Source: a virus
Taxonomy: Duplodnaviria > Caudoviricetes
DNA: 64,000 nucleotides
Virus record (IMG/VR): IMGVR_UViG_3300032220_000132
Coordinates: 207-64,206 of that record
Direction: 5' to 3' (one strand)
Shown here: in pieces, positions 33,601 to 55,636 of the stretch
How positions within the stretch are numbered: the stretch's first letter is position 1
Layout: each line of letters opens with the position of its first letter
Notes under the pieces: generated by a model
The model's database searches: none
What the model saw: the letters and a program-made list of their open reading frames with translations, nothing else
Told to the model about the DNA's origin: nothing
Made by a program: the position numbers and the translations under genes

Positions 33601-36600
33601 AACATAAAAGATGACATCAGTTTTGCATTAAACGGCAAGACAGCGCAGGACGTTGTTAATGAAATAGAGACAGATTTAAACAGCGTCTATATTGAAGTAA
33701 GAAATCAAATTGTTCTTAAACAGCAAGCGCTTGATGAAGCTATAAAAAATCCAACAGCTACTGAAAAAGATATAGCAGAGTTAAATAAGCAAAAAATAGC
33801 GTTAGACAATCAATTTGCCACATTAAATGAACGTAAAGATAAAACGCTACAGGCACTAAGCAACACCTTTGCAATTGGAACTGGCTTTGAATCTTTTATA
33901 GTTAACAGTGTTCCATCCGCTGCTGTAGTTATAGGAATAAAGGTAGATAAAGCACGGATAGGTAAATCCAAAACTGGTAATCCTTATTCACCATCAAACT
34001 TCCAAGTTATTATCAAACGAAATATTCCTGAAGGTAGGATATCTCCAACCTTGGCAACATTGGAAGGTACATCAATTGAGCGATCTAGTCCTTGGACAAA
34101 CCCTCCTCTAGAAGATTGGTTTGCCTTAAAGTCGGTTACTGGTGGAAGAACAACTAGATATATAGCCTTAGGAAACATACTAAAAGCTGCTCAATTGTTT
34201 GGTCCTAGTGGCGGTGAAATTGCTAAATTTACTTTGCAAAATAGCAAAGAAGCAATATCTGGCGTAGTCATGCCATCTAAGTATGTGCCAGTGGCAATTA
34301 GCGAACAAGCGGTTCGGTTAAGAAACCCAGAAGCAGCAGTTCAATATTTGCTGGCTATGTGGGACAGCATAGTACAGAAAAAATATAACGATACTCAAAT
34401 TGAATCATATAAAGAATTAAGTGATACCTTAAAACCTTTAATGATTCCTAATTTGCCAAACCCTTTTGATGGAGAAAAGACTAGTACAAATGCTGTTATA
34501 TTGCGTGGCTCAGCACAAACATGGCAGTTGCGGATTGATCCGTATCGACCAAATAACTTTAAAGTAATTATTGCAGGAGATGTTCCAAAGAAATTAATAA
34601 CTGCACCAATACTTAAAACGTTAATTCCAGGTGGCCTTGCCAAAAAAGGTAACAAAGCATATGAGATGTCTGGCGGTGATTCATTAACAGATCCACAAAA
34701 AATAATATTGTTAGTCAAGTTCTTACATAAAAATTACCCAGCGACAGTAGAAGCAGATAGCGCTAAGTTTGCTCGTGAAGTAATGAAAGTGGAGTTTGAC
34801 TATAGTGAAAGTAAGAAAGGTTTAGCATCACGGGGTCCTGCAGAGGGCGGTCAAACGGTTGAAGCTGTTCAAGCACAGATTGTTCCTATAAAAGGAATTA
34901 CAGTTAACGTTCTTCAATCAGTTGATGAATTGCCAGACAATACTGCGCCAGCTGACGTAGAAGGTATGTGGCTTTCGGGCAGAACTGTTTACTTAATTGC
35001 AGATAACCTACCAAATGCAAAAAGAGTACAGGAAGTATTAGCGCATGAGGCTGTTGGTCACGCTCTTTTAGAAGAGATGTTGGGACCAAAGCTGATGGCA
35101 GAATTGGTTAGAAATGTCCAAAACTTAGAAAAGACTTCTAGCCTTGTTAAGGAAATAGCCGCCAAAGTAGATCGTACACAGCCTGGCTTATCGCCAGAGC
35201 GAAGAGCCAAAGAAATCGTAGCAAACATGGCAGAGCGTGGCATGTACAAAATAGGTCTAGTACAGCGTGTTATTCAAGCCATTCGCAATTGGTTGAGAAG
35301 CCAAGGGTATACGATTAGCTTCTCTGATAGGGATATTGTTGAACTATTAAACTTTGCCGAAAACTACTTTGATCGTAAAGAAGCAGTCCGCTTTCCATCT
35401 TTACAACCTGCACCAGCAAAGACTCAAGCAGAGATCAATAGAGAGCGTCAACAACAAAAGCGGGAAAAGGCTGCTGGGTACTTCAGTAGAGAAGGCGAAG
35501 GCAAGAACACTGAAGACTTTGACAAGCAATTTGCTGAAGATGGCTTTAACAACACTCCAATTAGGTCTTCATCTACAGTAAAGGACACTTTACTTGGCGG
35601 TGCAAAACAGGCAAAGCAGGCTTACGACAACACTATAGATGCTCCAGCCATGGCATATAAAGCCATGAGTGGCAAGCTCTTGCGTGGCATTACCTATGTC
35701 CGTAATAAGAACATCTGGTATGGTGCTGGTTTGGAATTGGCTGAGAAAATCAACCAAAAGGCAGCTGGTTTATCTGGCAAGCTGCGTGATGGTCAAGGTA
35801 GAGCCATGGCTTCTATTGCCATTACCAATGCCTTACACGCTGGCAATATTGCCGTAGATGTTATTAGACAGGGCTCATTGGCGTTTAATAGAGATAGCCA
35901 GATGTTCCAAGCAATTAAACGACCATTCTCTATGGCTAACGTAATCATTGAAAAATCAAAGTTGATAGCTAGAGTTGGTGAACAACGTGCCCACGACATG
36001 ATTCAAATGTACTTTGAAGCCAAGCGCTCCAAGAGCATTAATGACGAATTCCAGAAAATAGAAGAGGAAATTGCTCGTTTAGATAAAGAGCGCCTTTCAC
36101 CAGGACTAGACAACGATCAGCTCAATCAAATTCTTAATGACCTTTTAAATGCCAAGCAGGACTTGAAGCAGATTGGTATTGCGAAAAAGAAGGTTCGCAT
36201 GACCGAAAAGCAGATAGATTTTTACAGAAAACTAGATGAAAAGCATCCAGAACTAGGCAAGATGATGGAGAACTGGACCAAAGTCAATCAAAACATGATT
36301 GACATGATGTTGTTTAGCAAAATCATCAGCAGTAAACGTGCAGAACGGCTTAAGAGCATTGAGGATTATGTTCCTTGGTATCGTATCCAAGATGATATGG
36401 AAGACGTTCACGATACAAGCACCATGGGTAGTGTGCGTAGCAATACTAATATTGCCAAAGAAAAGAAATTCAAGGATACCGAAGTAAATAAGGATATTGA
36501 TGACATTGTGGATAACATGCTCCACAACGTTATGACTATTACCCGTAACTCTATGCGTAACTACGCTGCCAACCGTGTAGTTGATTCTTTTGCAACCCGT

Positions 36601-38343
36601 GTTAAAGGAAAAATAGCAGTCTTTCCAAAAGAAGGACCCACAACAAATGGCGCAGTTCGATTAAACATCTTACGCAATGGTCGCAGAATCATCGTTGAAA
36701 TCAAGGATCCATTGATTGCCGAGTCCGTAACAGGTATGGAAGATGTTGCTATTCCTGGCATGGATGTCCTCGGTATGGCTGCAAACGGATTACGCAGAGG
36801 TATTACGTTATGGCCTGCGTTCCAAATAAGACAGCTATTTATGGATGCCCCAACAGCTGCTCTGGTTTCTGGAGTAAAGAACCCAACTAAGCTCTGGGGA
36901 GAAGTATTTGGTGGTTTTATAAAGTCAGTAAAAAAGGATGATCCTATAGTTGAGCTCTTACGGTCCTATGGAATAGGTGGATATCAGTCCTATACCAGAA
37001 CTGCAGAAATGGAACTGAAACAAAGGATTGGCTTAATTGAAAAGAACAAGTTTGATTGGTTGATGAGTAAATTAGATCAAATTGGAGATGCCTCAGATAT
37101 GGCGCAGCGTGTGGCTATATACAATCGTGTTTTGGCTGAGACTAAATCTGACGAATTTCCTAATGGCGATCAGATGCAAGCCCTTATATCTGCCAACAAC
37201 ATTATTGACTTCAAAAAACGTGGCTCAGGTCGTTTAGCCCAGTTCCTAACCAGAACTGTATCCTTTATGAACGCCTATGCCCAGCAGATTGACGTGCTGG
37301 CATTGACAATCGCTGGTTCTGGGTACACTGGCAAGAGCAAATCAGACGCCTATGTGCAGTTAGCCAAGACAGCAGTGCTGTTCTCTTTCTACGTCATGCT
37401 CTATTCATGGGCAGTTGGTGGAGAAGATGACTACGAAGAACTAGATGATCAGACAAAACTGCGTAATCTTTATATTCCAAAGGCGCTGACCAAACAAATT
37501 GGCATGGACAACGGTTTATTAATTCCAATGCACACATCGGCTAGTTTCTTCTTTAAGTCAATTCCAGAGCTAACCTATAACACAGTAATGAAAGAGGGAA
37601 CAGAAAATGAAATTGATGGCGCTCGTCTTCGTAAAGCCCTTGCCGAAGCTGCTATAGACTCATTATTAGGTCCTAACCCAGTGCCAACTGGTATCAAACC
37701 AGGTTTTGAGATTTTGCTCAATAGAAACTTCTTTACTGGTGGCACAGTAACTCCTAAAGGTATGGAAGACCTAGATGCTGTTGAGCAATACACCGCATCA
37801 ACCTCTGAGCTTGGCAAGATTCTTAGCGCTATAACTAACATCCCATTCACCGATAAGCGTATTCTTAACCCAATTGAGGCAGATCACCTAGTTCGTGGTT
37901 TATTTGGAACTACTGGTGCAGCTGTCCAGTGGGGTAGCAATATATTCTCTGGTGATCGCCCAACCGCTACAGCTAGACAGAATCCGCTGTATGGCTCGTT
38001 TATTGCCCCTGATGTAGCCCGTGGTAATGAGGAACTGTTCTATGACTTTAAGAGTAAGGTTGATAACAAGTACGAAACCTATATGAAGCTCTTAGAGCGT
38101 GATAAGGCAGATGAGGCTGATAGGTACTACAACAAGCATGCTGACCTGATCTCAGCCCGTGACTATGTGACTGGCATGGAAGTAGCCTTGCGTGACTTAA
38201 ACCGCCAGATTCGTAACACTGGTGAGGTAAAGGACAAGAGTTTCACGCCTGATCAACGTAGACAGGAGATCACTGATCTACAGCGCTCTAAGCAGGAGCT
38301 GCTAGAAGGGATTATCCAGATGCGCTTGGACTCTGGACTGTAA
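24691..38343 (+). CDS. Giant (4550 aa) polyvalent ejection protein: LPD1-like/zincin, N6-adenine methyltransferase, strawberry-notch SF2 helicase, metallopeptidase, LPD38-like C-terminus
   Basis: FGNWV...GHEWQHALD (~28290), YWSTPVELLSRSFE; VLDPTGGNG + NPPF (~29530-29735); GDDTGVGKG, DEAH, AGATGISLHA (~31300-32960); LAHEAVGH (~35040). Confidence 0.85.
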   Translation: MAIKPENVNPFAKYVEEPAEAPPENPFAKYLQISQLEEATKKYEEEVPFLQRVTDPLQAGIARIPGILPGLEVSAIQKQINAIREGKGGPRDPITGESLPFQPEEADAAIKMLQAQQSEAQKKVMAAQAEAGKYQTRPAVAALGNAKTAREAFDLFQVDPLGVMSSVSLESLPQMGPALILGAVTRNPTVGALAMGSTSFAGELSSGITEYFQDKGVDVKNPVAVNKALNDPVLFAEAYNHALTRASIIAPLDAASAGLASKMLVPKQVIKNQFAKEALNIGVAQPVAQMISGAGGEALAQLATEGEITKPGQVLMEAAGEGPSSVLETAAFGGKEAYDRLKASQPPAPPVPPAPTVTGAPPAVPPAAPTDLAPTVEEDDLAPSAIVPPSVVAPLAGMVSTEGLDPAIAQQVESLKAELLMIENRRTDPTRNVSEMELEFLAQREAEVAKEITALLTPKAPETLVTPVTPEAPVTPPVTPPVAQLDLIGRLQEFGEVIESRQDAETRFSNGEQIYAFSEQDEQPFLIRNIDEISAYTPDRLLALPAAVAEEVTTEPEVATTNQVFSNDGLQIFAGKNKEGTFVATKGNLGDGTEKTLLLDKDGNTFWGDRKESINPTTGERTIVGADKDATPATFATAKEARSAGERTLEAVPAVEETPAEPTKEEQIAINKARQEEQRAAAEAEKAEKEKAEKEKAPTEEEIAKPTGGPAIGGPAAPTGGPAAPKKVAPTEEEKKEKEEEKKAKEEEKKAREEEKKAKEEEKAQKEEQKKKIAELNTNPMKVAMETGNADAVATLLYGHAVDENLHPVIFPEEMLLRIPVETTLLSQIEDQLVKNKFRITDRAVPAKTDDPSYVGPERITISALYNPEKVSIQGGGAEFFNNRKGQITAAPLPKDATEKQKDALVTELLDLANPKKLLDIQSNPKNTFGALMFKEGLVSKIKSPGDYLFELINLNARAGGQFNTYIPSKAGNRQAIKLVIDDGKEQLVRKLLVDYVTSLQTLQAVINEHSNVTPLYDALVAKYVKDENADRIPDIYTPEGVDLRNKIEDVRLYQYIPRLFLLFSLDENSTDQTNRIVKKDAETPPELGNIIRRGMRDHRQGRDVDVQDFLQTFKFLPGGIDFGNWVNQSERAAHLNAIYDAMYDLADIAGIAPEMLGLNEKLKLAVGAQGRGGKTAAWFVPQYNEINLTKTKGDGTLGHEWQHALDWNLRTSANGKVLMADTAHTLQNMITVERVENNLRSILTNTANSENNRNTPPKKAFFNAISNSRYGEADIYRSSFTDTQFYKDALELDRGRDKPYWSTPVELLSRSFESLIYDLSKGGSPYLVGPTVADGYVSKKNGYLGTTYPAGKERPVINQIYQQMLDQIDPKTLEIKTYKIENQIIAVEELGYAVVDQYYLDRGRLGGLNWFKTKEEAKEAKEQRDGTEAILTPRLMQISKVNQSIINMAQRIDAIMDEMGLFKWPEIKNGSMAESMFYHMRQGWWPKNNRELAEYGIKAYLQAPELLGFNPAKNQREIDNYKIADFEGDRVKLKQTQEDFEAAAVRFISQVITDMRSEGSDTKAIYDHIVGLYQNQPTLDVKSVLSVSNNAYSTPLPIAYLAGMLSRVKSTTTVLDPTGGNGMLVVTANPKNVTTIEIDPHRVNNLELMQIGDVIEGDALVKIKDIQDQKVDVVLTNPPFGSLPTPVDVKSWTGQNYKIGAIDQLIAAESLRTMANDGRAVLILGSHVKPNTITSTDRVFLNWLYGNYNVADHFEIAGNLYRKQGASFPLRVLVIAGRNQTDNVFPNDFVVNRINSFDELWSRYVQASDRSEQVVVGTRKLRGPAGGADRTTRTVPTGDNLQDGETSGGMGRTGEGAGIGEQLPPTGGVNVPPSASGRGTAGGVRDTEQQQDSGEDQRGRPRGGEPSTAERSDISGEESSTELGGLSDLELDDIFNSLGKKPKTGTTTPKGEPKGVRGPRAPKGAAKTKTVIPKELEGLGLESLLDELDAALNGKAPEVTITEPTPENSDARLDKQSQEAMDRIAQNAKNTSDDPNSGLYSRKDDQEYANVKPIIQKVWEAVGQKITDTKQRIQQVYDLLVKKFGDLIKGHLRTYVNELRNTVQRRPKNQTPVQSEPIDTESRVVYLGKSRFSSDGIYLPRAQSQHAYTALENLEAQVGNIDEFVAKELGYSSIDQMAKGLAGYQIDALGLAIQANKLGKGFIIGDDTGVGKGRTAAAMIVWAKKQGKVPIFVTLSDSLYTAMYADLIAIGHGDIQVAMTNSDSKIIKDVGEGKTELVFENKKGDNDKLIKYITQNRKLPPGKDVLFTAYSQLNGGVGSPARQSAIASLVASGDAVLIMDEAHNAAGTPSDKDSMGQNAFFMSLLTGENLLGKGEEVPESWKPPPTVYLSATFAKRPDNMPLYIHTNLRYAADTPEDLTALFGKGVKTDVLQQVSSEMLVESGSMIRRERSYEGVTMEFVIDDKNTARDTREVDKVTEILRSLVNADRAFKEWIKTEGGKDAVVKLGPPGSYMGKVGPTAFNDTKSNPFTSVVHNYIGSLLLSTKTQTAVDMVVDKLNNNEKVVVGLQNTNGSALEDFVAQNNIKKGDDIPDFGWQTLIKRAVKSTTKVTLKSASGNKDMDQVVYVPYELMPPNIRAGYENVENALENFQSDLPAAPIDFIRTELEQKYVWTIDGKTHVGDTPPKGVKARHLVVKEITGRKNGIDYSGDVPKYVTLDNPSRTSMISSYQNGEESKNGPIDVLIINSAGATGISLHASVDAFDQRPRHMIVLQPHGDISVFIQLLGRIHRTGQVEWPSFTMLATGIPAERRILAMLRKKLSSLKSNTSGGSSSTKVEGVDFINMYGDVATAEYLNEHPDIQAFLSVPQYSDPAEAAGSDLAHKASGTAGLLSSADQKEFFDSIEASYIAEIDLRNATGTNALERRVLPLEAEIIKENLIEEGLDSSNPFLTDVVMAQFNVDIIGSIPTVQNIKDDISFALNGKTAQDVVNEIETDLNSVYIEVRNQIVLKQQALDEAIKNPTATEKDIAELNKQKIALDNQFATLNERKDKTLQALSNTFAIGTGFESFIVNSVPSAAVVIGIKVDKARIGKSKTGNPYSPSNFQVIIKRNIPEGRISPTLATLEGTSIERSSPWTNPPLEDWFALKSVTGGRTTRYIALGNILKAAQLFGPSGGEIAKFTLQNSKEAISGVVMPSKYVPVAISEQAVRLRNPEAAVQYLLAMWDSIVQKKYNDTQIESYKELSDTLKPLMIPNLPNPFDGEKTSTNAVILRGSAQTWQLRIDPYRPNNFKVIIAGDVPKKLITAPILKTLIPGGLAKKGNKAYEMSGGDSLTDPQKIILLVKFLHKNYPATVEADSAKFAREVMKVEFDYSESKKGLASRGPAEGGQTVEAVQAQIVPIKGITVNVLQSVDELPDNTAPADVEGMWLSGRTVYLIADNLPNAKRVQEVLAHEAVGHALLEEMLGPKLMAELVRNVQNLEKTSSLVKEIAAKVDRTQPGLSPERRAKEIVANMAERGMYKIGLVQRVIQAIRNWLRSQGYTISFSDRDIVELLNFAENYFDRKEAVRFPSLQPAPAKTQAEINRERQQQKREKAAGYFSREGEGKNTEDFDKQFAEDGFNNTPIRSSSTVKDTLLGGAKQAKQAYDNTIDAPAMAYKAMSGKLLRGITYVRNKNIWYGAGLELAEKINQKAAGLSGKLRDGQGRAMASIAITNALHAGNIAVDVIRQGSLAFNRDSQMFQAIKRPFSMANVIIEKSKLIARVGEQRAHDMIQMYFEAKRSKSINDEFQKIEEEIARLDKERLSPGLDNDQLNQILNDLLNAKQDLKQIGIAKKKVRMTEKQIDFYRKLDEKHPELGKMMENWTKVNQNMIDMMLFSKIISSKRAERLKSIEDYVPWYRIQDDMEDVHDTSTMGSVRSNTNIAKEKKFKDTEVNKDIDDIVDNMLHNVMTITRNSMRNYAANRVVDSFATRVKGKIAVFPKEGPTTNGAVRLNILRNGRRIIVEIKDPLIAESVTGMEDVAIPGMDVLGMAANGLRRGITLWPAFQIRQLFMDAPTAALVSGVKNPTKLWGEVFGGFIKSVKKDDPIVELLRSYGIGGYQSYTRTAEMELKQRIGLIEKNKFDWLMSKLDQIGDASDMAQRVAIYNRVLAETKSDEFPNGDQMQALISANNIIDFKKRGSGRLAQFLTRTVSFMNAYAQQIDVLALTIAGSGYTGKSKSDAYVQLAKTAVLFSFYVMLYSWAVGGEDDYEELDDQTKLRNLYIPKALTKQIGMDNGLLIPMHTSASFFFKSIPELTYNTVMKEGTENEIDGARLRKALAEAAIDSLLGPNPVPTGIKPGFEILLNRNFFTGGTVTPKGMEDLDAVEQYTASTSELGKILSAITNIPFTDKRILNPIEADHLVRGLFGTTGAAVQWGSNIFSGDRPTATARQNPLYGSFIAPDVARGNEELFYDFKSKVDNKYETYMKLLERDKADEADRYYNKHADLISARDYVTGMEVALRDLNRQIRNTGEVKDKSFTPDQRRQEITDLQRSKQELLEGIIQMRLDSGL
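30104..30481 (+). CDS. Nested out-of-frame gene (125 aa) inside giant protein
   Basis: GGAG 30095-30098, 5 nt, then ATG 30104; globular-looking product, while the host frame is a low-complexity G/R/T/E linker. Confidence 0.65.
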   Translation: MFKPVIVANKSWWVPENYGDLLAVQIEQPEQYQQAIISKMAKLAEEWGGLERALASANNYLRQEGSTYLPVPVDVEQLVEFVIQNNSRIAEKINEGDPEVANPAPQKEAIYLVKNQALNWEDFLT

Positions 38344-38818: not shown

Positions 38819-38847
38819 TTGACATACCCAAAACTCTGATACATACT
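38819..38847 (+). promoter_or_regulatory. Sigma70 promoter of recombination operon
   Basis: TTGACA-17-CATACT. Confidence 0.7.
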
Positions 38848-38877
38848 TGAGTCTAGTTTAACTGCTAGGAGAACTAA

Positions 38878-44760: not shown

Positions 44761-45005
44761 TGCTAGGAGAATTACGAGAACGTGTGAAAGGCATAACTGC
44801 CTCTTCACTCTTCGTAACTCTCCACAGCTACACCATATAGGTCGGACATAACAACAGCTATATGGGAAGACCCCCTACTGTGGGATTAGATCTGAAACAG
44901 GGGAAAGGATGGCGAAGCCAGAGTCCTAGATCGAACGTCTGGCGGGTGCAGTGGCTCCGAAAAGCAACTGTTGAAGGCACACCTAGGAGAGGCTAGGTGC
45001 GTCCA
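44761..45005 (+). ncRNA. Long structured 5' leader of replication operon
   Basis: Long hairpin 44766-44823; ccatatag/ctatatgg; tggc-gaa-gcca; cacctag/ctaggtg. Confidence 0.5.
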
Positions 45006-48952: not shown

Positions 48953-49758
48953 TGAGGTTTGAAGACTTTGCCCGATCCCATGGGCTGATTATCAACAGTG
49001 TTGTTCCTTTTAAATGGGTAGCAACCCCAACAGATGACCATCCACATAAGCGTAATGGGCGCTATAAATTCATGGGTGATGTTGGCTGGGTGCAAAACTG
49101 GGCAACCATGGATAAGCCAAGTATGTGGCGCAATAATGGAAATTATGCGACAACCCCACAGTTTCTAAAACTGCGAGACCAAGAAGACCAAAAACGCAAG
49201 GCTTTGGCTGATCGTGCTTGTGCAAAAGCAGGCTGGATCATGCACCAGACTGAAGTTATGCACCATCCATATCTGTTAAAAAAAGGTTTTCCAGACGAGA
49301 AAATGCCCGTGCATGACGGCAAATTAGTAGTGGCGATGCGGAAAGATGGAAAAATAGTAGGATGCCAACTCATCAATGACGAGGGGGATAAGAAGTTTCT
49401 CTATGGTCAGCAGACGAAGGGGGCAACTTTCACCTTTGATGCAAAAGGTGTCCCGATCTTCTGCGAGGGTTTGGCTACGGGCTTGTCTATTCAGGCGGTA
49501 ATGAGAGCCAATAAAATGCGATACACAATCCATGTTTGCTTTAGTGCAGGCAACCTCAAGGAAGTAGCAAGGCTTATCCCCAATGGGATAGTCGTGGCTG
49601 ACAATGACCCCAGTGGTGTCGGAGAAAGAATCGCCAAAGAGACAGGCAAACCTTATTGGATCAGCGACACAATCGGGCATGATTTCAATGATGACTATGT
49701 TGCTCATGGTCTATTTAGGATGTCCCAATCCCTCAAAAAGGTGTTGATAGGCAGATAA
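48952..49758 (+). CDS. Toprim-domain DNA primase
   Basis: HPYLLKKG, CQLI...GDKKF, CEGLATG, FSAGNL, ADND, DFND. Confidence 0.85.
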   Translation: MRFEDFARSHGLIINSVVPFKWVATPTDDHPHKRNGRYKFMGDVGWVQNWATMDKPSMWRNNGNYATTPQFLKLRDQEDQKRKALADRACAKAGWIMHQTEVMHHPYLLKKGFPDEKMPVHDGKLVVAMRKDGKIVGCQLINDEGDKKFLYGQQTKGATFTFDAKGVPIFCEGLATGLSIQAVMRANKMRYTIHVCFSAGNLKEVARLIPNGIVVADNDPSGVGERIAKETGKPYWISDTIGHDFNDDYVAHGLFRMSQSLKKVLIGR

Positions 49759-49761
49759 TAT

Positions 49762-49793
49762 AGAAAAACCCCCAGTCTTACGGCACTGGGGGT
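49762..49793 (-). terminator. Intrinsic terminator of leftward early operon (possibly bidirectional)
   Basis: acccccagt/actgggggt stem with U tract on - strand. Confidence 0.8.
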
Positions 49794-49815
49794 ATCTATT
49801 TACTGCTAGGTAAAT

Positions 49816-49962
49816 CTAATTAGGTTTTGGATCTTTCTTTTCCTCTAACTCCTCAACCCGCTTAATTAGGGTATCAACTCGGTCATTCCACAACTGGGAA
49901 TCCACCGACTGAGGCCATGTAATTAAGTGTTCTTTTATAAGTTCTAAGATACTTTTAGGCAT
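49816..49962 (-). CDS. Early hypothetical protein (48 aa; not in ORF track)
   Basis: MPKSILELIKEHL...; ATGCCTAA overlap. Confidence 0.55.
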   Translation of the reverse strand: MPKSILELIKEHLITWPQSVDSQLWNDRVDTLIKRVEELEEKKDPKPN

Positions 49963-50128
49963 TCGGATCTACCTCATCTAATCCGTAAACCTCAACAATT
50001 TCCCAGTTATCTACATCCTTGGGATTAGCCACATCCATCCCATATTCTTCAGGATCTTCCCCATTTGGCACATCCACCTCAACATAGGTAGTCCCAATAA
50101 ATTTGACACTCATTCCATATCTACGCAT
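49955..50128 (-). CDS. Early acidic hypothetical protein
   Basis: YVEVD motif; start approximate. Confidence 0.55.
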   Translation of the reverse strand: MRRYGMSVKFIGTTYVEVDVPNGEDPEEYGMDVANPKDVDNWEIVEVYGLDEVDPNA

Positions 50129-50304
50129 GATTCTTCCTTTATTCCACATACACACAAATAAACACCTTTACAGTCAGGATCAAACCCAAAACTCTTGGCA
50201 AGATCATCCCAATCCCTTGGCACTATCTCAGGATCAACATACATCCACCCACCCTTGGGTAAAACTGTATATCCCGCTTGTTCTACCTCTTGTTGGTTAA
50301 GCAT
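50110..50304 (-). CDS. Early hypothetical protein
   Basis: MLNQQEVEQAG; ATGCTTAA overlap with SD gaggag. Confidence 0.6.
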   Translation of the reverse strand: MLNQQEVEQAGYTVLPKGGWMYVDPEIVPRDWDDLAKSFGFDPDCKGVYLCVCGIKEESCVDME

Positions 50305-50452
50305 CTTGCATCTCCTCAACTCTGACATACTCAGGTGTCTCAAAATGATCCCATGTAGATTGCTCGTATGCTTTACTAATCGCACTATCTTGATCTTTAG
50401 CATCAACTTCTACATACCCATACGATACAAACACAACTGTATATTTAGGCAT
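50297..50452 (-). CDS. Early hypothetical protein (51 aa; not in ORF track)
   Basis: MPKYTVVFVSYGYVEVDAKDQDSAI...; SD gaggag. Confidence 0.65.
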   Translation of the reverse strand: MPKYTVVFVSYGYVEVDAKDQDSAISKAYEQSTWDHFETPEYVRVEEMQDA

Positions 50453-51086
50453 CTTCCATCTCCTCAAGTTCTTTCTTCTTGGCGATCAACTGGGCAGAAA
50501 GTTCAGCATCATCCTTTTCTTTCAAGGTTTCTTCCAGTTCCTCGATCTCATCAGCAAGTTCTTGCATAGCCCATTCTTTCATGCTCTCGGTGATGCCAAA
50601 CTCAAGGTCAATGTTATCGGGGATATTGTTTTTGACATCCAACCAATTACCGCTAATGTCATAGGTCTCATCTGAACCATCCACATATTGACCGCAAAAG
50701 CAACAACCGCCCTCATAGTAAAGAGCATTCACCCCATAACCTTGATCTACCAGTTTGTCAAAGATTCCAGTAGGCGGAGACCACGCAGTGGCGAATGATG
50801 CTCTGATCTCATTTTCCTGAATATCAATGTAGGCTTCATCCGTAGTAATCTCCCACTTTGTTCCCCAGTTCTGAACCCGCCAATCCCACCATGCTGATTC
50901 AGGATTAACTGGATCGTCATTACCCTTGATACTGGGGAATGTCGGCTTGACCTTTACCTTGGTGTAATCAGGCTCAGGATGGATAGTTCCAAAGAATTTG
51001 TTTGCTTTCCACGCATCCACAAGAACCTGAATCTTCTTGGGATCATCATGGGTTATATATACAGTGTTATCGCACCAATTAGGCAT
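50445..51086 (-). CDS. DUF1281/YubB-like ferredoxin-fold protein
   Basis: MPNWCDN...WWDWRVQNWGTKW...FATAWSPP...YYEGGCCFCG. Confidence 0.8.
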   Translation of the reverse strand: MPNWCDNTVYITHDDPKKIQVLVDAWKANKFFGTIHPEPDYTKVKVKPTFPSIKGNDDPVNPESAWWDWRVQNWGTKWEITTDEAYIDIQENEIRASFATAWSPPTGIFDKLVDQGYGVNALYYEGGCCFCGQYVDGSDETYDISGNWLDVKNNIPDNIDLEFGITESMKEWAMQELADEIEELEETLKEKDDAELSAQLIAKKKELEEMEDA

Positions 51087-51264
51087 TTTGATTCTCCTTA
51101 TGTTGTTGTTCAGCCAGTCTTCTTTGCTTCATAGCCATCAGCCGACCATAGTGCATCTTGTCTTCTAATCGCCATTCGTAATATTCGATCTTGCATCTTT
51201 TCGTTAAATCGAAAAACATACTATTCATTTCCAATTCAATTTCTTCAAGTGATTTTTTAGGCAT
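51079..51264 (-). CDS. Early hypothetical protein
   Basis: MPKKSLEE; SD gaggag. Confidence 0.6.
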   Translation of the reverse strand: MPKKSLEEIELEMNSMFFDLTKRCKIEYYEWRLEDKMHYGRLMAMKQRRLAEQQHKENQNA

Positions 51265-51436
51265 TTGCTTTCTCCTCTTCAGAAATAACAAAGTAATAGG
51301 TGCTATAACATTTTGGGCAAACTACCTCGGCTTCTTCCTGCCCTTCAATCTCATGCTCGGCATGGGTAAACCCAATGTGATGGCAGTCCAAGCAAATGTT
51401 CTGCACATCATCTTCTACTTCAAAGTATTTAGGCAT
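51257..51436 (-). CDS. Early Zn-ribbon protein
   Basis: CLDC...CPKC. Confidence 0.65.
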   Translation of the reverse strand: MPKYFEVEDDVQNICLDCHHIGFTHAEHEIEGQEEAEVVCPKCYSTYYFVISEEEKANA

Positions 51437-51608
51437 CTTCACACTCCCCTGCATAAACTTCTTCGTAGATTGATTTGATAACCTCACCCTCATGCTCATC
51501 AGCACAGTATTCAATGACATCCTGAACTGTCCAATGTCCTACATGGATTGTTCTGCCTGATGCAAACTCAACCATGTAAGCCTTTTCGTAATCTGAGTCA
51601 TAACTCAT
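51429..51608 (-). CDS. Early acidic hypothetical protein
   Basis: SD gaggag; MSYDSDYEKAY. Confidence 0.65.
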   Translation of the reverse strand: MSYDSDYEKAYMVEFASGRTIHVGHWTVQDVIEYCADEHEGEVIKSIYEEVYAGECEDA

Positions 51609-51903
51609 CTTCACACTCCTCATCAGTGCTAACGCATACCTCTAACCCATCACCCTCATAAGGCACTTCGGTAATGTAATAGTAGATACGATTGACCAAG
51701 TGATAACCATCCACCACATAAGTCCCGCCATCCCCATCCACATAAGTCCATACCCGCTTTGGCTGAGTATCTGCAATACCCAAGACATAACCCAGTTCAA
51801 TGTCGTATGTCTCAAAGTAATCCCTTGTGCATTCCCGATTCTCACCTCTTGCGAGGTGATTTTGAATCGGTTTGTATTTGTCATACCATTCATCAAAATC
51901 CAT
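51598..51903 (-). CDS. Early conserved hypothetical protein
   Basis: FDEWYDKYKPIQN...FETY...VWT...GYHLVNRIYY. Confidence 0.7.
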   Translation of the reverse strand: MDFDEWYDKYKPIQNHLARGENRECTRDYFETYDIELGYVLGIADTQPKRVWTYVDGDGGTYVVDGYHLVNRIYYYITEVPYEGDGLEVCVSTDEECEDEL

Positions 51904-51912
51904 ATAGCCCCC

Positions 51913-52392
51913 TTACCAACTGGCTTGATAGTAAAACTCATACTGATCTTCGGGCAGTGATTCCAACGCACTGGTAATGCCCTCGACAGTATTCTTTAGG
52001 TCTTGCCAATACCATTCATCCTTTTCGTATGAACCAAAAAAGAATCCCTCTACTGGATCTAAATCATCATCCCTTATGCCATCAGGATCATTCAGGATTG
52101 ACTGGCACAAGTCCCGCAACTCCACCAGTTTTTCCCTTGGCACATAGGATTGCTGACACTCATCCACCCCACCCTGACAGTTTTCCACGAACCACCCATG
52201 GATAGCGTTAGCCTTTCTCCAATACATGGCATCAATGGATACTTCCTTGACCACAAGGCTCGATCCCCCAAATCGTTTCTCAGGATTACCATCAACCCCA
52301 ATCATTTGATTGACCTTTTGAGATATTTCCTTGTCCTCGTCTCGGTGAGACGAAAGATATCTCTTGGCAGTTAAATACATATCTAAACCCAT
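51913..52392 (-). CDS. Early conserved phage protein
   Basis: MGLDMYL...YWRKANAIHGWFV...GFFFGS...YQASW; leader aactgctaggag. Confidence 0.8.
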   Translation of the reverse strand: MGLDMYLTAKRYLSSHRDEDKEISQKVNQMIGVDGNPEKRFGGSSLVVKEVSIDAMYWRKANAIHGWFVENCQGGVDECQQSYVPREKLVELRDLCQSILNDPDGIRDDDLDPVEGFFFGSYEKDEWYWQDLKNTVEGITSALESLPEDQYEFYYQASW

Positions 52393-52408
52393 AACATTCT
52401 CCTAGCAG

Positions 52409-52473
52409 TTAAAGTTATGATTGCCGAATGACAATCCCTATGCCCTCACACAAAGGCATAGAAGTATCACTCA
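52409..52473 (-). promoter_or_regulatory. RNase III-like processing hairpin, copy A
   Basis: ugagugaua/ugucauucg plus cuaugcc/ggcauag; homologous to 55063-55129. Confidence 0.6.
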
Positions 52474-52722
52474 GGGCATCACTGGCAAACAGGATTGCTT
52501 ATCATCACTGGTAAACAATGCACCACCACCATTCCCCTCATCATCCCGACTGGGGAAGAACCACAGACCATCATGGGTTTGAAAAGCGATTGACCTTTCA
52601 TACCAACCCATCTCCCCCATTTCTTCCTTGGTCATGTATCGAACATTGACAATGCGTTTATGCAACAACAGTTTTTTGGCTTCATCATTCCAATACTTGT
52701 CGTAATCCTTAATTTCTTTCAT
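52471..52722 (-). CDS. Early hypothetical protein
   Basis: VRYMTKEE...PSRDDEGNGGGALF. Confidence 0.7.
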   Translation of the reverse strand: MKEIKDYDKYWNDEAKKLLLHKRIVNVRYMTKEEMGEMGWYERSIAFQTHDGLWFFPSRDDEGNGGGALFTSDDKQSCLPVMP

Positions 52723-52731
52723 CACACTCTC

Positions 52732-52809
52732 CTAGTTAAAAGTAACGATTGCAGACCACACCACATACGCAGTGTAGGCTACTGCTATTGGCACAATCCA
52801 GTCCCACAT
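52732..52809 (-). CDS. 25-aa single-TM peptide (not in ORF track)
   Basis: MWDWIVPIAVAYTAYVVWSAIVTFN; TAATG coupling. Confidence 0.5.
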   Translation of the reverse strand: MWDWIVPIAVAYTAYVVWSAIVTFN

Positions 52810-53093
52810 TACTGCACCCCCTCTAATTCGTAATCAACTTCAAAAATAGTGAGATTGTCCTTATCAATCTCAACAATGGTGAAGTCCTCACCATCATTAA
52901 GAACATCTCCCGCTTTCAACGATTCCATTTCCTGCCCAGTCAAAAAGAAGTAAATCTTTTCATCTGCCCAACTATCAAAATACGCATCTTCAGGATGACC
53001 ATCTTCTGCAACTCCCAGTAATACATTTGCACCATCACCTAACCAGTCGCAACTAATGACTGCGTCATAGGCTTTAATCTTCATTGTCGGCAT
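52809..53093 (-). CDS. Early acidic hypothetical protein
   Basis: Leader aactgctaggag, 6 nt to ATG 53093. Confidence 0.7.
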   Translation of the reverse strand: MPTMKIKAYDAVISCDWLGDGANVLLGVAEDGHPEDAYFDSWADEKIYFFLTGQEMESLKAGDVLNDGEDFTIVEIDKDNLTIFEVDYELEGVQ

Positions 53094-53112
53094 ATCCATC
53101 TCCTAGCAGTTT

Positions 53113-53218
53113 GACAAAGACCCCCCGACTGCTTCGTTTACTCATACAGGCATATTGCGTCATATACTCAGTAAGGTAATTAGGGGGGTTTCGACTATTC
53201 AAGTCTCTTCAGTTTGCC
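53113..53218 (-). ncRNA. Type I hammerhead ribozyme
   Basis: GGCAAA CUGAAGA GACU-ugaau-AGUC GAAA CCCCCC...GGGGGG UC^ UUUGUC; all core residues and GUC cleavage triplet present. Confidence 0.88.
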
Positions 53219-53403
53219 TAGTAATCCTCGTTTTCTTCCCACAGGCAAGGATCAACTAACCTTTGCCCGAAAGCATTGAACAACTGCCCACAATCACAAG
53301 CAACATCCTCGCCTGAACCATCCGAGCAGACCTTTTTATTGCACTGGCACTTCCATTCCCGCCACAGAATTCGACCAGTATCTTGGCATTCAACGATTCT
53401 CAT
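53218..53403 (-). CDS. Early Cys-rich (Zn-binding) protein
   Basis: CQC...CDCGQLFNAFGQRL. Confidence 0.65.
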   Translation of the reverse strand: MRIVECQDTGRILWREWKCQCNKKVCSDGSGEDVACDCGQLFNAFGQRLVDPCLWEENEDY

Positions 53404-53711
53404 TATTCAAACTCCTTTGGCACGATCACATCAAACTTACGCAACAGGGCTATTGCCTTGTCAGACAGGCACATCACTCCGTCATATTCATCCAAGGTGC
53501 GGACTCCAAACTGGTCAATGGTGAACCACAGACCAATGTATTCAAAACCCACATCCTCGATATCCCACTCAATGAACCCAGTAGCATCATCCCTAAAATA
53601 CAACTCCATGGTGGATTCGTGAGTCCCGATATCCTTCTCGCCCCAACTGCCTTCCATAATCAAAGGGCAGTTAAAGGTCTCTTTGCCGATAAAGTAGTGA
53701 GTCATAATCAA
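53403..53711 (-). CDS. Early hypothetical protein
   Basis: Coupled ORF; IGLWF...EYDGVMCL. Confidence 0.65.
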   Translation of the reverse strand: MIMTHYFIGKETFNCPLIMEGSWGEKDIGTHESTMELYFRDDATGFIEWDIEDVGFEYIGLWFTIDQFGVRTLDEYDGVMCLSDKAIALLRKFDVIVPKEFE

Positions 53712-54070
53712 TACTCCGAACTAAGCATAAGAACATTGTCGGTCAGGAAGAACTGATACTCCCCATCAGGGCAGTCAGTATGCTCAATATGCTTTTGTTT
53801 GAAAGTCCTGTAATCACCATCTTCAATACTGATATCGGCACTGCCATTGGCAACTGCCAATTTGATAGCCAAAAATGGCTCTTTCTTGAGCAGTGGAAAT
53901 GCTTCAGTGGCGATAATGTCCAAGAACCAGTAAGCACCATTTCCCGCATTGTCAGCAAAGTATTTAACTCCGTCAGTGTGAACCATGTCCTTAGCAAAAA
54001 TAGGATTGGTGCGATAGTAATTCTCAGTCCCATAAAACTGGGATAAATCTAATTTGGTAGTCGATTCCAT
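53708..54070 (-). CDS. DUF6876-like protein
   Basis: LSQFYGTENYY...TDGVKY...AYWFLDII...VLMLSSEY. Confidence 0.75.
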   Translation of the reverse strand: MESTTKLDLSQFYGTENYYRTNPIFAKDMVHTDGVKYFADNAGNGAYWFLDIIATEAFPLLKKEPFLAIKLAVANGSADISIEDGDYRTFKQKHIEHTDCPDGEYQFFLTDNVLMLSSEY

Positions 54071-54265
54071 TTAATTCTCTCCCTTAATTGAGGTAGGTTT
54101 TAACGATTTAACAAAAGCAACTGCGTGGTGATGAAAAGCAAATGTAGCAAGCCAGTATTTCCTAACATGGATATCAGGCTTGCTTGACACAGGACTGGCA
54201 TCATATTCGTCAAGTCTGACAACCTTAAAAGTAAAATCAGGTGTTTTTTCTATTTCATAATTCAT
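54071..54265 (-). CDS. Early hypothetical protein
   Basis: MNYEIEKTPDF; start approximate. Confidence 0.5.
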   Translation of the reverse strand: MNYEIEKTPDFTFKVVRLDEYDASPVSSKPDIHVRKYWLATFAFHHHAVAFVKSLKPTSIKGEN

Positions 54266-54653
54266 CTTCTTCATCCTCTGCACCAAGCACAGTATCGACA
54301 ATGTAATCACCAAACTTCAGAACCCCATCATCATTGGTGCATAAGGTGGCAGTCTCAAACACTACAAGCGTTGAATCCTTGCGATCATCAGTAGCGTAAG
54401 CAACAGGCACAAGACCAATCAAACCCGCATCAACTGGGTAAGTATTGCCTTTGTTATCGGGATAGCAACCATCACCCCATTTAGTGCCAAAAGCAAGAAC
54501 TTCAAAGTCCCCAACTTTGCCAACAGGGGCATTGAAGTAATTGCATGATGCAAGCAGATCGCCCCAATCCTTATCAGGCACTACATAGCAGGGATCGCCA
54601 AGGATGTAAGCACCCTTTGGAACTACGACAGATATAGAACTTAATGTAAGCAT
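54255..54653 (-). CDS. Early conserved protein (GDPCY / GDGxY / VDAGLIG family)
   Basis: Named motifs present in translation. Confidence 0.7.
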   Translation of the reverse strand: MLTLSSISVVVPKGAYILGDPCYVVPDKDWGDLLASCNYFNAPVGKVGDFEVLAFGTKWGDGCYPDNKGNTYPVDAGLIGLVPVAYATDDRKDSTLVVFETATLCTNDDGVLKFGDYIVDTVLGAEDEEDEL

Positions 54654-54655
54654 GA

Positions 54656-55045
54656 TTAGATTCCTCTGTAATTGTCAGGGTTATATTCCCGTTGATGCCC
54701 CGCATAATCAACGGCTTTGTAGTCAGCAATCTCAACATTCAAAGGGATCACCTGCAACCCAGTTAATTGCTCGATACGGCAAGCAGTCAGGATGCTAACA
54801 ATCATGGTGTAAAGATTATCATCATCAGACCTAACATCCAGTAGAAGCGAGGTGTGGCGGTCAGTAGTGCTAATCAATCTGCCAATCTCGCCAGTCCAAA
54901 CAAGCAGACCATCCTCTGTGGAAGATGGATCATTCAGGTTAGCGATGCTATGGTCAGCAAGGGCAACAGTGTTGTTGTCCTCATTGTGGAACAGGTAATG
55001 CGAGAAGCATTTCTTGGCTTCAATTTTATTAACCAATTCAAACAT
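54656..55045 (-). CDS. Early hypothetical protein
   Basis: Leader aactgctaggag. Confidence 0.7.
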   Translation of the reverse strand: MFELVNKIEAKKCFSHYLFHNEDNNTVALADHSIANLNDPSSTEDGLLVWTGEIGRLISTTDRHTSLLLDVRSDDDNLYTMIVSILTACRIEQLTGLQVIPLNVEIADYKAVDYAGHQREYNPDNYRGI

Positions 55046-55062
55046 ATTAAATCTCCTAGCAG

Positions 55063-55129
55063 TTAGTCGAATGATTGTTGAATAACAATCCCTAAACCCA
55101 TTGGGTAATGGGCTTAGAGGTATTACTCA
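55063..55129 (-). promoter_or_regulatory. RNase III-like processing hairpin, copy B
   Basis: ugaguaaua/uguuauuca plus cucuaagcccauu/aauggguuuaggg. Confidence 0.6.
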
Positions 55130-55351
55130 ATAACTGGCTCTCGCTTCTGCTTGATGCTCAGCCATCATATCGGCACGAACATCAACCATGGCTTGCAGGG
55201 ATTGGATTGTCTTAACGACATCCATATCGTTTAGGGCTAATTCTTCCAGTAATTGGCTATCATCATAGGCTTCTACTACGACATCCCAACCCATGTTGTA
55301 TAAGGCTTCAGCGTATGCTTTGATTGCTTGAATCTTGTCTTGCTCAGTCAT
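55127..55351 (-). CDS. First early gene, hypothetical
   Basis: Leader ctactaggag; YNMGWDVVVEAY. Confidence 0.7.
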   Translation of the reverse strand: MTEQDKIQAIKAYAEALYNMGWDVVVEAYDDSQLLEELALNDMDVVKTIQSLQAMVDVRADMMAEHQAEARASY

Positions 55352-55395
55352 TATTTTCTCCTAGTAGTCGAATCGGTGTTTAAGCACCTACCGAC

Positions 55396-55424
55396 AGTTT
55401 TACAAAGTAGCAATACCATGTCAA
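55396..55424 (-). promoter_or_regulatory. Sigma70 promoter of leftward early operon
   Basis: TTGACA at 55424-55419, -10 region tgTAAAACT, AT-rich upstream element. Confidence 0.6.
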
Positions 55425-55636
55425 TACCTTTTTGAAAATATTTTTAGGGCTTACTGGATAAGGGTTTGCGGGGCATGGAGTCTGGGCAAATAGACCTAAA
55501 AGCGGGCAAAGGTGCGAAGCACAACAGTCCAGTAGCAAAGACACTAGAGAGAGATATAGGAGAGATAGAAGATAGTAGTAGCAGAATCATCCTGATTGCC
55601 CTAGAATCAGGCTATGACGATTCTCAAGAGATACCT

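Follow-up and report, generated by a model that had tools for sequence, protein, structure and literature searches.

Does the short gap between two small genes of a tailed phage encode an RNA that cuts itself, and what would such a cut do for the messenger? This question is raised by positions 53113 to 53218 (minus strand) of IMG/VR virus record IMGVR_UViG_3300032220_000132, counted within the 64,000-nucleotide (nt) stretch analysed here (positions 207 to 64,206 of the record, hereafter the window), where an initial annotation made from the letters alone had placed a type I hammerhead ribozyme. The motif, its conservation and covariation in related viral contigs, and its fixed position relative to a ribosome-binding site are observed. 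The best explanation overall, to which we give a probability of about 0.75, is that a genuine type I hammerhead would carry out intercistronic processing without a host nuclease. As to its parts, the element is very probably cleavage-competent, and segmentation of the mRNA with definition of the downstream leader is its likely function. The element and its parts are the following.

53113-53218, minus strand: complete type I hammerhead ribozyme, 106 nt (sequence, descriptor scan and covariance model R1)
53213-53218, minus strand: stem I 5' strand GGCAAA; its first G doubles as the final base of the upstream stop codon, and its pairs covary in relatives
53206-53212, minus strand: core C3 U4 G5 A6 A7 G8 A9 (CUGAAGA), read from the sequence
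53193-53205, minus strand: stem II hairpin GACU-UGAAU-AGUC (GACU 53205-53202, AGUC 53196-53193, loop UGAAU), including the G10.1-C11.1 pair
53189-53192, minus strand: core G12 A13 A14 A15.1 (GAAA), read from the sequence and invariant in relatives
53183-53188, minus strand: stem III 5' strand CCCCCC, read from the sequence; stem III covaries strongly in relatives
53127-53182, minus strand: stem III insert of 56 nt, a type C module forming a three-way junction
53121-53126, minus strand: stem III 3' strand GGGGGG, read from the sequence
53119-53120, minus strand: U16.1 (53120) and C17 (53119), with the predicted cut between 53119 and 53118
53113-53118, minus strand: stem I 3' strand UUUGUC, read from the sequence; the predicted 5'-OH product starts with it

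Along the RNA strand the order is stem I 5' strand, CUGANGA, stem II hairpin, GAAA, stem III hairpin, UH and stem I 3' strand; stem I is open and stems II and III are closed by loops, which is the type I topology. Stems I, II and III measure 6, 4 and 6 base pairs (bp) in the descriptor scan, and the pairing of GGCAAA (53218-53213) with UUUGUC (53118-53113) includes one G.U. In the isolated 106 nt, the minimum free energy (MFE) fold is the hammerhead secondary structure, at -26.9 kcal/mol. The position of the cut, 53119/53118, follows the general rule for hammerheads. The predicted 3' product starts with UUUGUCAAACUGCUAGGAG, 25 nt upstream of the ATG at 53093; a second ATG in the same frame stands ahead of it at 53099, directly next to AGGAG with zero spacing, and initiation there rather than at 53093 seems unlikely. 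When read from the sequence, all the elements and coordinates given by the initial annotation proved correct on the minus strand, and both the predicted cleavage position and the distance of 25 nt to the ATG agreed with it.

The motif is not easily obtained by chance. A descriptor made of CUGANGA, stem II, GAAA, stem III (loop of at most 120 nt), UH and stem I, with minimum lengths of 3 bp for stems II and III and 4 bp for stem I, was scanned over both strands of the 64,206-nt genome, and its single match was this site. When the genome was shuffled 400 times with its dinucleotides preserved, this loose descriptor (stems of at least 4, 3 and 3 bp) gave 10 matches in 8 shuffles, and no shuffle (0/400) held a motif equal to the observed stems of 6, 4 and 6 bp.

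The element was then considered in its relatives. The two flanking proteins, used as queries, retrieved 36 loci (downstream gene) and 24 loci (upstream gene of 61 amino acids, aa) from IMG/VR viral contigs, many of them from the same contigs; megablast of 52000-54500 and blastn of 52700-53800 against the phage GenBank collection gave no match and no annotated relative. In most of the retrieved loci the descriptor found a hammerhead directly after the homologue of the 61-aa gene, and additional hammerheads of the same sense were present within the same loci. The covariance model R1, built from 21 compact relatives with the window copy excluded, recognised the window element with 53.3 bits (E 1.4e-12), the next match in the window reaching 9.6 bits. 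In the window and L001-L060 (set 1) R1 gave 74 matches in 54 of 61 sources, every one in the sense of the genes, and none in L014, L016, L018, L021, L031, L033 and L036. A pattern scan combining the 3' half of compact hammerheads with the leader described below returned 48 viral-contig stretches, from which 31 new loci were taken; together with one locus from a metagenome-assembled genome (MAG), L109, they form the 32 further loci of set 2, where R1 gave 70 matches in 31 sources, with at most 4 per locus. The total is 144 hammerheads in 85 of 93 sources, all gene-sense where the orientation is known.

The helices of these relatives keep their pairing while changing their letters. Stem III sequences are wholly different yet always paired: CCCCCC/GGGGGG, CCGAAUC/GGUUCGG, CCAAACC/GGUUUGG, CCAGUGCAU/AUGCACUGG, CAGUC/GACUG and CAAGUAAGUA/UACUUACUUG. 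Among the 41 distinct rows of set 1, 99.4% of the pair cells were paired, and among the 35 distinct rows of set 2, 99.8%; 12 of the 13 pairs were changed on both sides in each set. The covariation score was reached by 0 of 500 shuffles, and slid controls were paired in 50% of cells or less, again for each set. The result is robust because these slid controls fail and the helix sequences are wholly different.

The core behaves differently from the helices. C3, G5, A6, G8, A9, G12, A13, A14, A15.1 and U16.1 are invariant in 41/41 and 35/35 distinct rows, and U4 in 41/41 rows of set 1 and 32/35 of set 2. Position 7 varies freely (U28 A8 C4 G1 in set 1; U27 C6 A2 in set 2), position 17 is C or A (C39 A2 and C34 A1) and G in neither set, and some relatives carry an extra U between A9 and stem II. 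Such a pattern of fixed positions, a free N7 and an H17 that is never G is, as far as sequences can tell, the signature of selection for hammerhead catalysis. The initial annotation had staked its proposal on conservation of the core at homologous loci. The core is conserved there, and the identification of a canonical type I hammerhead is upheld by this conservation, by the covariation and by the pattern of invariant and free positions. Stem I is constant in length: it has 6 bp in 36 of 36 distinct descriptor matches, with A.A, U.U or C.U at the seventh position, and with this mismatch the tails fall where loop I would lie.

Where the ribozyme stands relative to the genes was examined in 93 distinct hammerhead contexts. 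Downstream of it lies a short sequence which is shared by most of them.

53100-53111, minus strand: conserved leader AACUGCUAGGAG, with the Shine-Dalgarno sequence AGGAG at 53104-53100

The form CUGCUAGGAG occurs within 32 nt downstream of the ribozyme in 83 of the 93 contexts, RGGAG being separated from the end of stem I by 8 nt in 55, 9 nt in 20 and 7 nt in 8. The predicted cut falls 22-30 nt upstream of the start codon, with a mode of 25 nt (36 cases, the window included). The tie to the upstream gene is looser: an open reading frame (ORF) of at least 30 codons ends within -15..+8 of the ribozyme in 59/93 contexts, and stem I shares the last base of the upstream stop codon in 25/93, as it does in the window. 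From one junction to another, stem I and the leader hardly differ in sequence. In L001-L060 all 174 occurrences of the leader CUGCUAGGAG are on the gene strand, the opposite strand having none, and it is also found after promoter-like sites, in the window and in relatives. Since it is confined to the gene strand and also follows promoter-like sites, we read it as a general 5'-proximal translation leader, placed near mRNA 5' ends generally, rather than as a part of the ribozyme. The exact 12-mer AACUGCUAGGAG is present four times in the window, at 53100-53111, 52399-52410 and 55053-55064 (minus strand) and at 38860-38871 (plus strand); these copies follow one hammerhead, two copies of an element called E2 and one sigma-70-like promoter (TTGACA, 17 nt, CATACT, near 38821-38850).

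E2 is a two-hairpin element which stands between a stop codon and the leader, and the window junctions that hold it are without a hammerhead.

55053-55136, minus strand: E2 with leader, copy 1, 79.7 bits with covariance model R2, filling a similar gene junction
52399-52480, minus strand: E2 with leader, copy 2, 74.8 bits with R2, before a 159-aa gene at 52392; relatives have a hammerhead here

Its layout is (U)GAGUGAUACCU, a helix P1 of about 10 bp with a variable loop, a stacked helix P2 of the form GAUUNNN-loop-NNNAAUC, then CAU, a short spacer and the leader AACUGCUAGGAG. R2 found 90 copies (2 in the window and 88 in L001-L060) in 39 of 61 sources, all gene-sense. In 28 distinct rows 97.5% of the cells were paired, 6 of 16 pairs were changed on both sides and G.U pairs were present; 0 of 500 shuffles reached the covariation score. 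No Rfam family matched E2. Upstream of the conserved 159-aa gene, 22 distinct contexts held E2 in 13 cases, a hammerhead in 7 and neither in 2, and loci devoid of E2 tend toward more hammerheads. This distribution suggests that E2 and the hammerhead are alternative, interchangeable occupants of one junction slot. E2 is a candidate processing signal or a candidate new ribozyme class; it may serve as a site for a host nuclease, its hairpins stabilising the 3' end, or be something new.

How the element would act can be proposed from these data, cleavage, end chemistry and any effect on stability or translation being what we infer. During synthesis of the polycistronic RNA, the 106-nt element would fold co-transcriptionally into three helices around the canonical core and would cut itself after C53119. 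Hammerhead cleavage leaves a 5'-OH and a 2',3'-cyclic phosphate. The upstream mRNA would thus end in the folded ribozyme with the cyclic phosphate, and the downstream mRNA would start with a 5'-OH and a 25-nt leader, UUUGUC-AAACUGCUAGGAG-N6, followed by AUG. Stem I, kept at exactly 6 mostly A-U pairs, would let the 3' product drop off and leave the leader single-stranded. In this way the downstream gene would be uncoupled from the upstream one and supplied with a standard 5' end and a ribosome-binding leader; the gene may benefit by being shielded from translation and structure upstream of it, by the uniform leader and by an altered susceptibility to 5'-end-dependent decay. Processing of the mRNA, which the initial annotation had put forward in a host-independent form, fits both the fixed distance between the predicted cut and the ribosome-binding site and the proposal of Perreault et al. 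2011 (PMC3088659), discussed below.

Several observations weigh against this reading. The 131-nt stretch around the ribozyme has ordinary stability (z -0.38), and with 30-60 nt of coding flanks the MFE fold pairs the stem I 5' strand with the upstream coding sequence, at -37.5 kcal/mol against -31.6 kcal/mol for the fold constrained to the hammerhead; translating ribosomes would be expected to open this pairing. By eye, no conserved pairing of loop II with the flanks was seen that could form the tertiary contact between stem I (or its tails) and loop II, a contact which gives hammerheads fast cleavage at physiological Mg. Public models are also silent. With Rfam 15 at gathering thresholds the whole window gave zero hammerheads, its sole match being a Betaproteobacteria-1 RNA elsewhere; the Rfam hammerhead models gave nothing in 52950-53400 at E<=10, and 20 related loci gave 0 hammerheads at the gathering score. 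The best sub-threshold result, on the compact relative L007, was 26.3 bits with RAGATH-1-hammerhead (RF03152; cut-off 56.3), and the same relative reached 24.9 bits with Hammerhead_3 (RF00008; cut-off 48.5) in a permuted alignment. The Rfam covariance search that the initial annotation had proposed as a check therefore stayed below thresholds in the window and in 20 relatives, a silence likely due to the 56-nt insert of the window copy, itself another point against, and to a minimal, open 6-bp stem I lacking the extra features that the models expect. Moreover, the covariation alignments were fitted to R1 and the descriptor demands pairing, both of which favour structure; C replaces U4, normally a damaging change, in 3 of 35 distinct relatives of set 2; in 34 of the 93 contexts the range -15..+8 contains no end of an ORF of at least 30 codons; and the window holds a single hammerhead, so that no gene is flanked by two here.

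Two related candidates were set aside by eye. A switch based on the pairing of the stem I 5' strand with upstream coding sequence was rejected, that pairing not being conserved in relatives with other stem I sequences, and no conserved pseudoknot between loop II and the flank, of the kind of Perreault et al., was seen. The three sequences of set 2 with C at core position 4 belong to the same set as the relatives with four hammerheads.

The insert of stem III leads to the first alternative. In relatives, stem III is capped by a GNRA tetraloop, by a 10-nt loop or by one of several conserved modules. The type A module consists of a symmetric internal loop in which each strand carries UGAG(U/A)CCGCAAAU; in type B each strand carries UUAGAAGCAAA. 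The module of the window, type C, forms a three-way junction which bears a hairpin UUAC..GUAA and a mini-hairpin AC-GAAGCA-GU. Relatives carry stem III modules at the following places.

L055:3186-3279, L054:3186-3279, L010:2886-2979, L015:2151-2241, L027:2117-2210 and L005:2673-2792: stem III modules in relatives
L023:2614-2691, L025:840-919, L026:1730-1810, L024:1498-1613, L114 and L175: further stem III modules in relatives

A scan for the twin-loop module (type A) returned 82 stretches, and 79 pattern matches were examined in L110-L186. Most of these are chance matches or coding repeats and were discarded, a real copy needing both loop copies and a long outer helix; all the real ones lie in hammerhead stem III, and no Rfam family matched the module. 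The type C scan returned 18 stretches, of which 7 are real, all in this phage group; type C motif matches in L014 and L034 are coding sequence.

According to this first alternative the ribozyme would be gated: the stem III module would bind a protein, a metabolite or an ion, which would decide whether stem III forms, and cleavage would be regulated. Conserved modules are indeed common to hammerheads at different junctions. Other hammerheads of the group hold a shorter type C of 31 nt, whose helices show compensatory changes (UCAC/GUGA to UUAC/GUAA, AC..GU to AG..CU), and the true copies of types A and C stand only inside hammerhead stem III, including the two more distant hammerheads L114 and L175. 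Regulated cleavage of phage hammerheads is also raised as a possibility by Perreault et al. (PMC3088659). Nevertheless no ligand or binding protein was identified, no Rfam family matches, and most hammerheads of the family do without a module, a long insert being present in 13 of 41 distinct rows of set 1 and 1 of 70 matches of set 2 being longer than 54 nt. As 5-10 strong pairs always close stem III, the modules may simply stabilise it or be insertions that it tolerates. Gating therefore appears quite unlikely as the main explanation. A broader claim joins it to E2: junction modules would be interchangeable, the stem III inserts being sensor or protein-binding domains, and so the first natural gated hammerheads, and E2 an undescribed self-cleaving RNA or a nuclease-recruiting signal. 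Taken as a whole, this joint claim is speculative and we regard it as unlikely.

A second alternative places the primary role at the level of DNA, the hammerhead or E2 together with the leader being a mobile cassette, a patch of homology for gene swaps, with RNA cleavage secondary. The junctions give some reason to consider it. The orthologous hammerhead after the 61-aa gene precedes at least 4 different genes (their products starting MPTMK, MSKF, MRVAE and MKFKLE), and as these genes are unrelated, the junction, followed in L001-L060, marks a gene-cassette swap point. Either a hammerhead or E2 may stand before one and the same gene, the 5' flank of E2 has stop codons in more than one frame, and stem I and leader show near identity across junctions. 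On the other hand, a DNA role leaves unexplained the strand specificity, the G.U pairs, the compensatory changes in three stems and the invariant core with its free N7. The two roles are not mutually exclusive; that the DNA role is the primary one we consider improbable.

Ligation is a third alternative, in which gene-length RNAs released by successive hammerheads, with 5'-OH and 2',3'-cyclic-phosphate ends, would be re-joined into spliced or circular RNAs by the ribozyme or by RtcB. Two or more hammerheads are present in 17 of the 54 match-bearing sources of set 1 and in 25 of 31 of set 2, with 2-4 per locus and about 350-800 nt between successive ones, and very similar stem I sequences could let the ends pair. 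In L080, L078, L108 and L095/L096, four hammerheads lie within about 1.6 kb (for example L080:1328-2969), before nearly every small gene. The window has one hammerhead only, and Perreault et al. (PMC3088659) state that they could not detect spliced or circular products. Contigs assembled from a wastewater metatranscriptome cover 34% of the sampled words of 49700-55500, with next to none in two freshwater runs; they are short and thin everywhere and none of those listed spans 53097-53131 (one ends at 53096 and another starts at 53132), so they are uninformative on cleavage, and they contain no joints at the site. Re-joining seems very improbable. One of these contigs (52183-52740) bridges E2 copy 2.

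That the motif is a chance match or an inactive relic is hardly credible: the silence of the Rfam models, the long stem III insert and the ordinary fold (z -0.38) would suit it, but no shuffle in 400 was as good, the family shows core invariance and covariation throughout, and the identical insert-bearing ribozyme is kept in the diverged loci L002, L006 and L009, which differ at N7 and in loop II.

The preferred reading, a type I hammerhead acting between cistrons, can be compared with known systems. Between the early genes of phage T7 there are sites for the host RNase III, and RiboJ is an engineered ribozyme insulator. Both resemble the present case in an intercistronic cut that gives a structured upstream 3' end and a defined downstream 5' leader, and so insulates a gene from what precedes it; the T7 sites need the host enzyme and RiboJ is synthetic, whereas here a natural RNA would cut itself.

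The nearest relatives by description are the phage hammerheads reported in 2011. According to PMC3088659, several hammerheads flank genes in prophages, cleavage was shown in vitro and in E. coli for three clusters, and the clustered ones are proposed to process polycistronic RNAs into gene-length mRNAs. Those clusters share with the present family a canonical core, an intergenic and gene-sense location, several copies per operon and association with single genes of varied identity. Several same-sense hammerheads per transcription unit, the clustering of that study, are found in the relatives, and the window has one. In contrast with the clusters of 2011, the predicted cut is here fixed at 22-30 nt before the start codon and tied to one conserved leader, AACUGCUAGGAG, and the element often starts on the upstream stop codon, alternates with E2 and can carry stem III modules. 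The same source describes HHphage of the haloviruses HF1/HF2, which lies 13 nt upstream of an early helicase gene and for which a transcript 5' end was mapped to no more than 3 nt from the cut. There too a hammerhead lies a few nt upstream of a start codon in the early region of a lytic double-stranded DNA virus, although HHphage has a variant core with insertions, a salt requirement and an archaeal host; here the core is fully canonical and the host likely bacterial.

Common to RAGATH-1 (RF03152) and the compact relative are type I topology, a short stem I and the CUGAUGAGACUUG...CGAAAC sequence of core and stem II. Two relatives nevertheless score 26.3 and 17.8 bits against its cut-off of 56.3, the columns of its upstream hairpin are unpaired and coding here, and the window copy gave no match at E<=10; the present hammerheads do not belong to that family. 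Type I hammerheads also stand in 5' untranslated regions of fungal RNA viruses, just upstream of a viral ORF, where according to PMC13725137 (2026) self-cleavage enables translation initiation. The setting differs: there the RNA is eukaryotic and translation cap-independent, while the present phage has a DNA genome and a Shine-Dalgarno leader. In the open-licence literature nothing specific was found on coupling of hammerheads to Shine-Dalgarno sequences in phages, nor on natural stem III insertions or allosteric hammerheads, in both cases weak evidence of absence.

The genome in which the element resides is that of a tailed phage, with large terminase, portal, virion proteins, exonuclease, helicase and ERF recombinase. 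The features around the hammerhead are the following.

53218-53403, minus strand: upstream gene, 61 aa, Cys-rich, stop TAG at 53220-53218; phrog_3207 (a PHROG of no assigned function); 24 related loci
52809-53093, minus strand: downstream gene, 94 aa from the ATG at 53093 (ORF list); no function from the PHROG and Pfam scan
55397-55424, minus strand: likely sigma-70-type promoter of the minus-strand operon, read by eye as TTGACA, 16 nt, TAAAAC
49768-49793, no strand assigned: bidirectional terminator-like hairpin ending the minus-strand operon (hairpin scan)

The hammerhead thus lies within a minus-strand operon of about 5.6 kb and about 15-17 small ORFs. A stretch similar to the promoter is present in relatives; the promoter of the window was missed by the consensus scan, whose rule needs T at position 6. 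For ten of the operon ORFs, comparison with PHROGs and Pfam yielded DUF6876, four unnamed PHROGs and three weak Pfam matches below threshold, and none of the ten received a function. That the flanking genes are early genes, as the initial annotation called them, is plausible. No phage RNA polymerase was found among the 16 large ORFs scanned. Elsewhere in the window, a DNA-ejection protein gene is followed by a single 4550-aa ORF (24691-38343, plus strand) with LPD1, LPD38, Strawberry-notch-type (Sbno) helicase and ResIII domains, probably a giant polyvalent protein injected with the DNA.

The Betaproteobacteria-1 RNA (RF02932) lies at 44831-44947 (plus strand) and scores 98.3 bits against a cut-off of 49.4. 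Together with the Shine-Dalgarno leader, this match makes a bacterial host likely, and its presence inside the phage genome hints at a betaproteobacterial one. A scan of genome contigs for the 3' end of the hammerhead plus the leader gave one stretch, in the uncultured alphaproteobacterial MAG of L109; this locus has no R1 match and was treated as uninformative.

Clustered phage hammerheads were described in 2011, and this family is an addition to that known kind. According to a 2019 review (PMC6765202), the purpose of the many phage-genome hammerheads is still undefined. In the present family the question of function becomes testable, because the distance from cut to leader is fixed, the leader also follows promoters and E2 is swapped in at the same junction; hammerhead, E2 and promoter, and presence or absence of the stem III module, are natural controls for function. 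As compact natural insulators, such elements would be useful in synthetic operons. For the phages themselves, the fixed position, the leader also found at promoters and the exchange with E2 point to one job, the supply of an mRNA with a defined 5' end, no host nuclease being needed.

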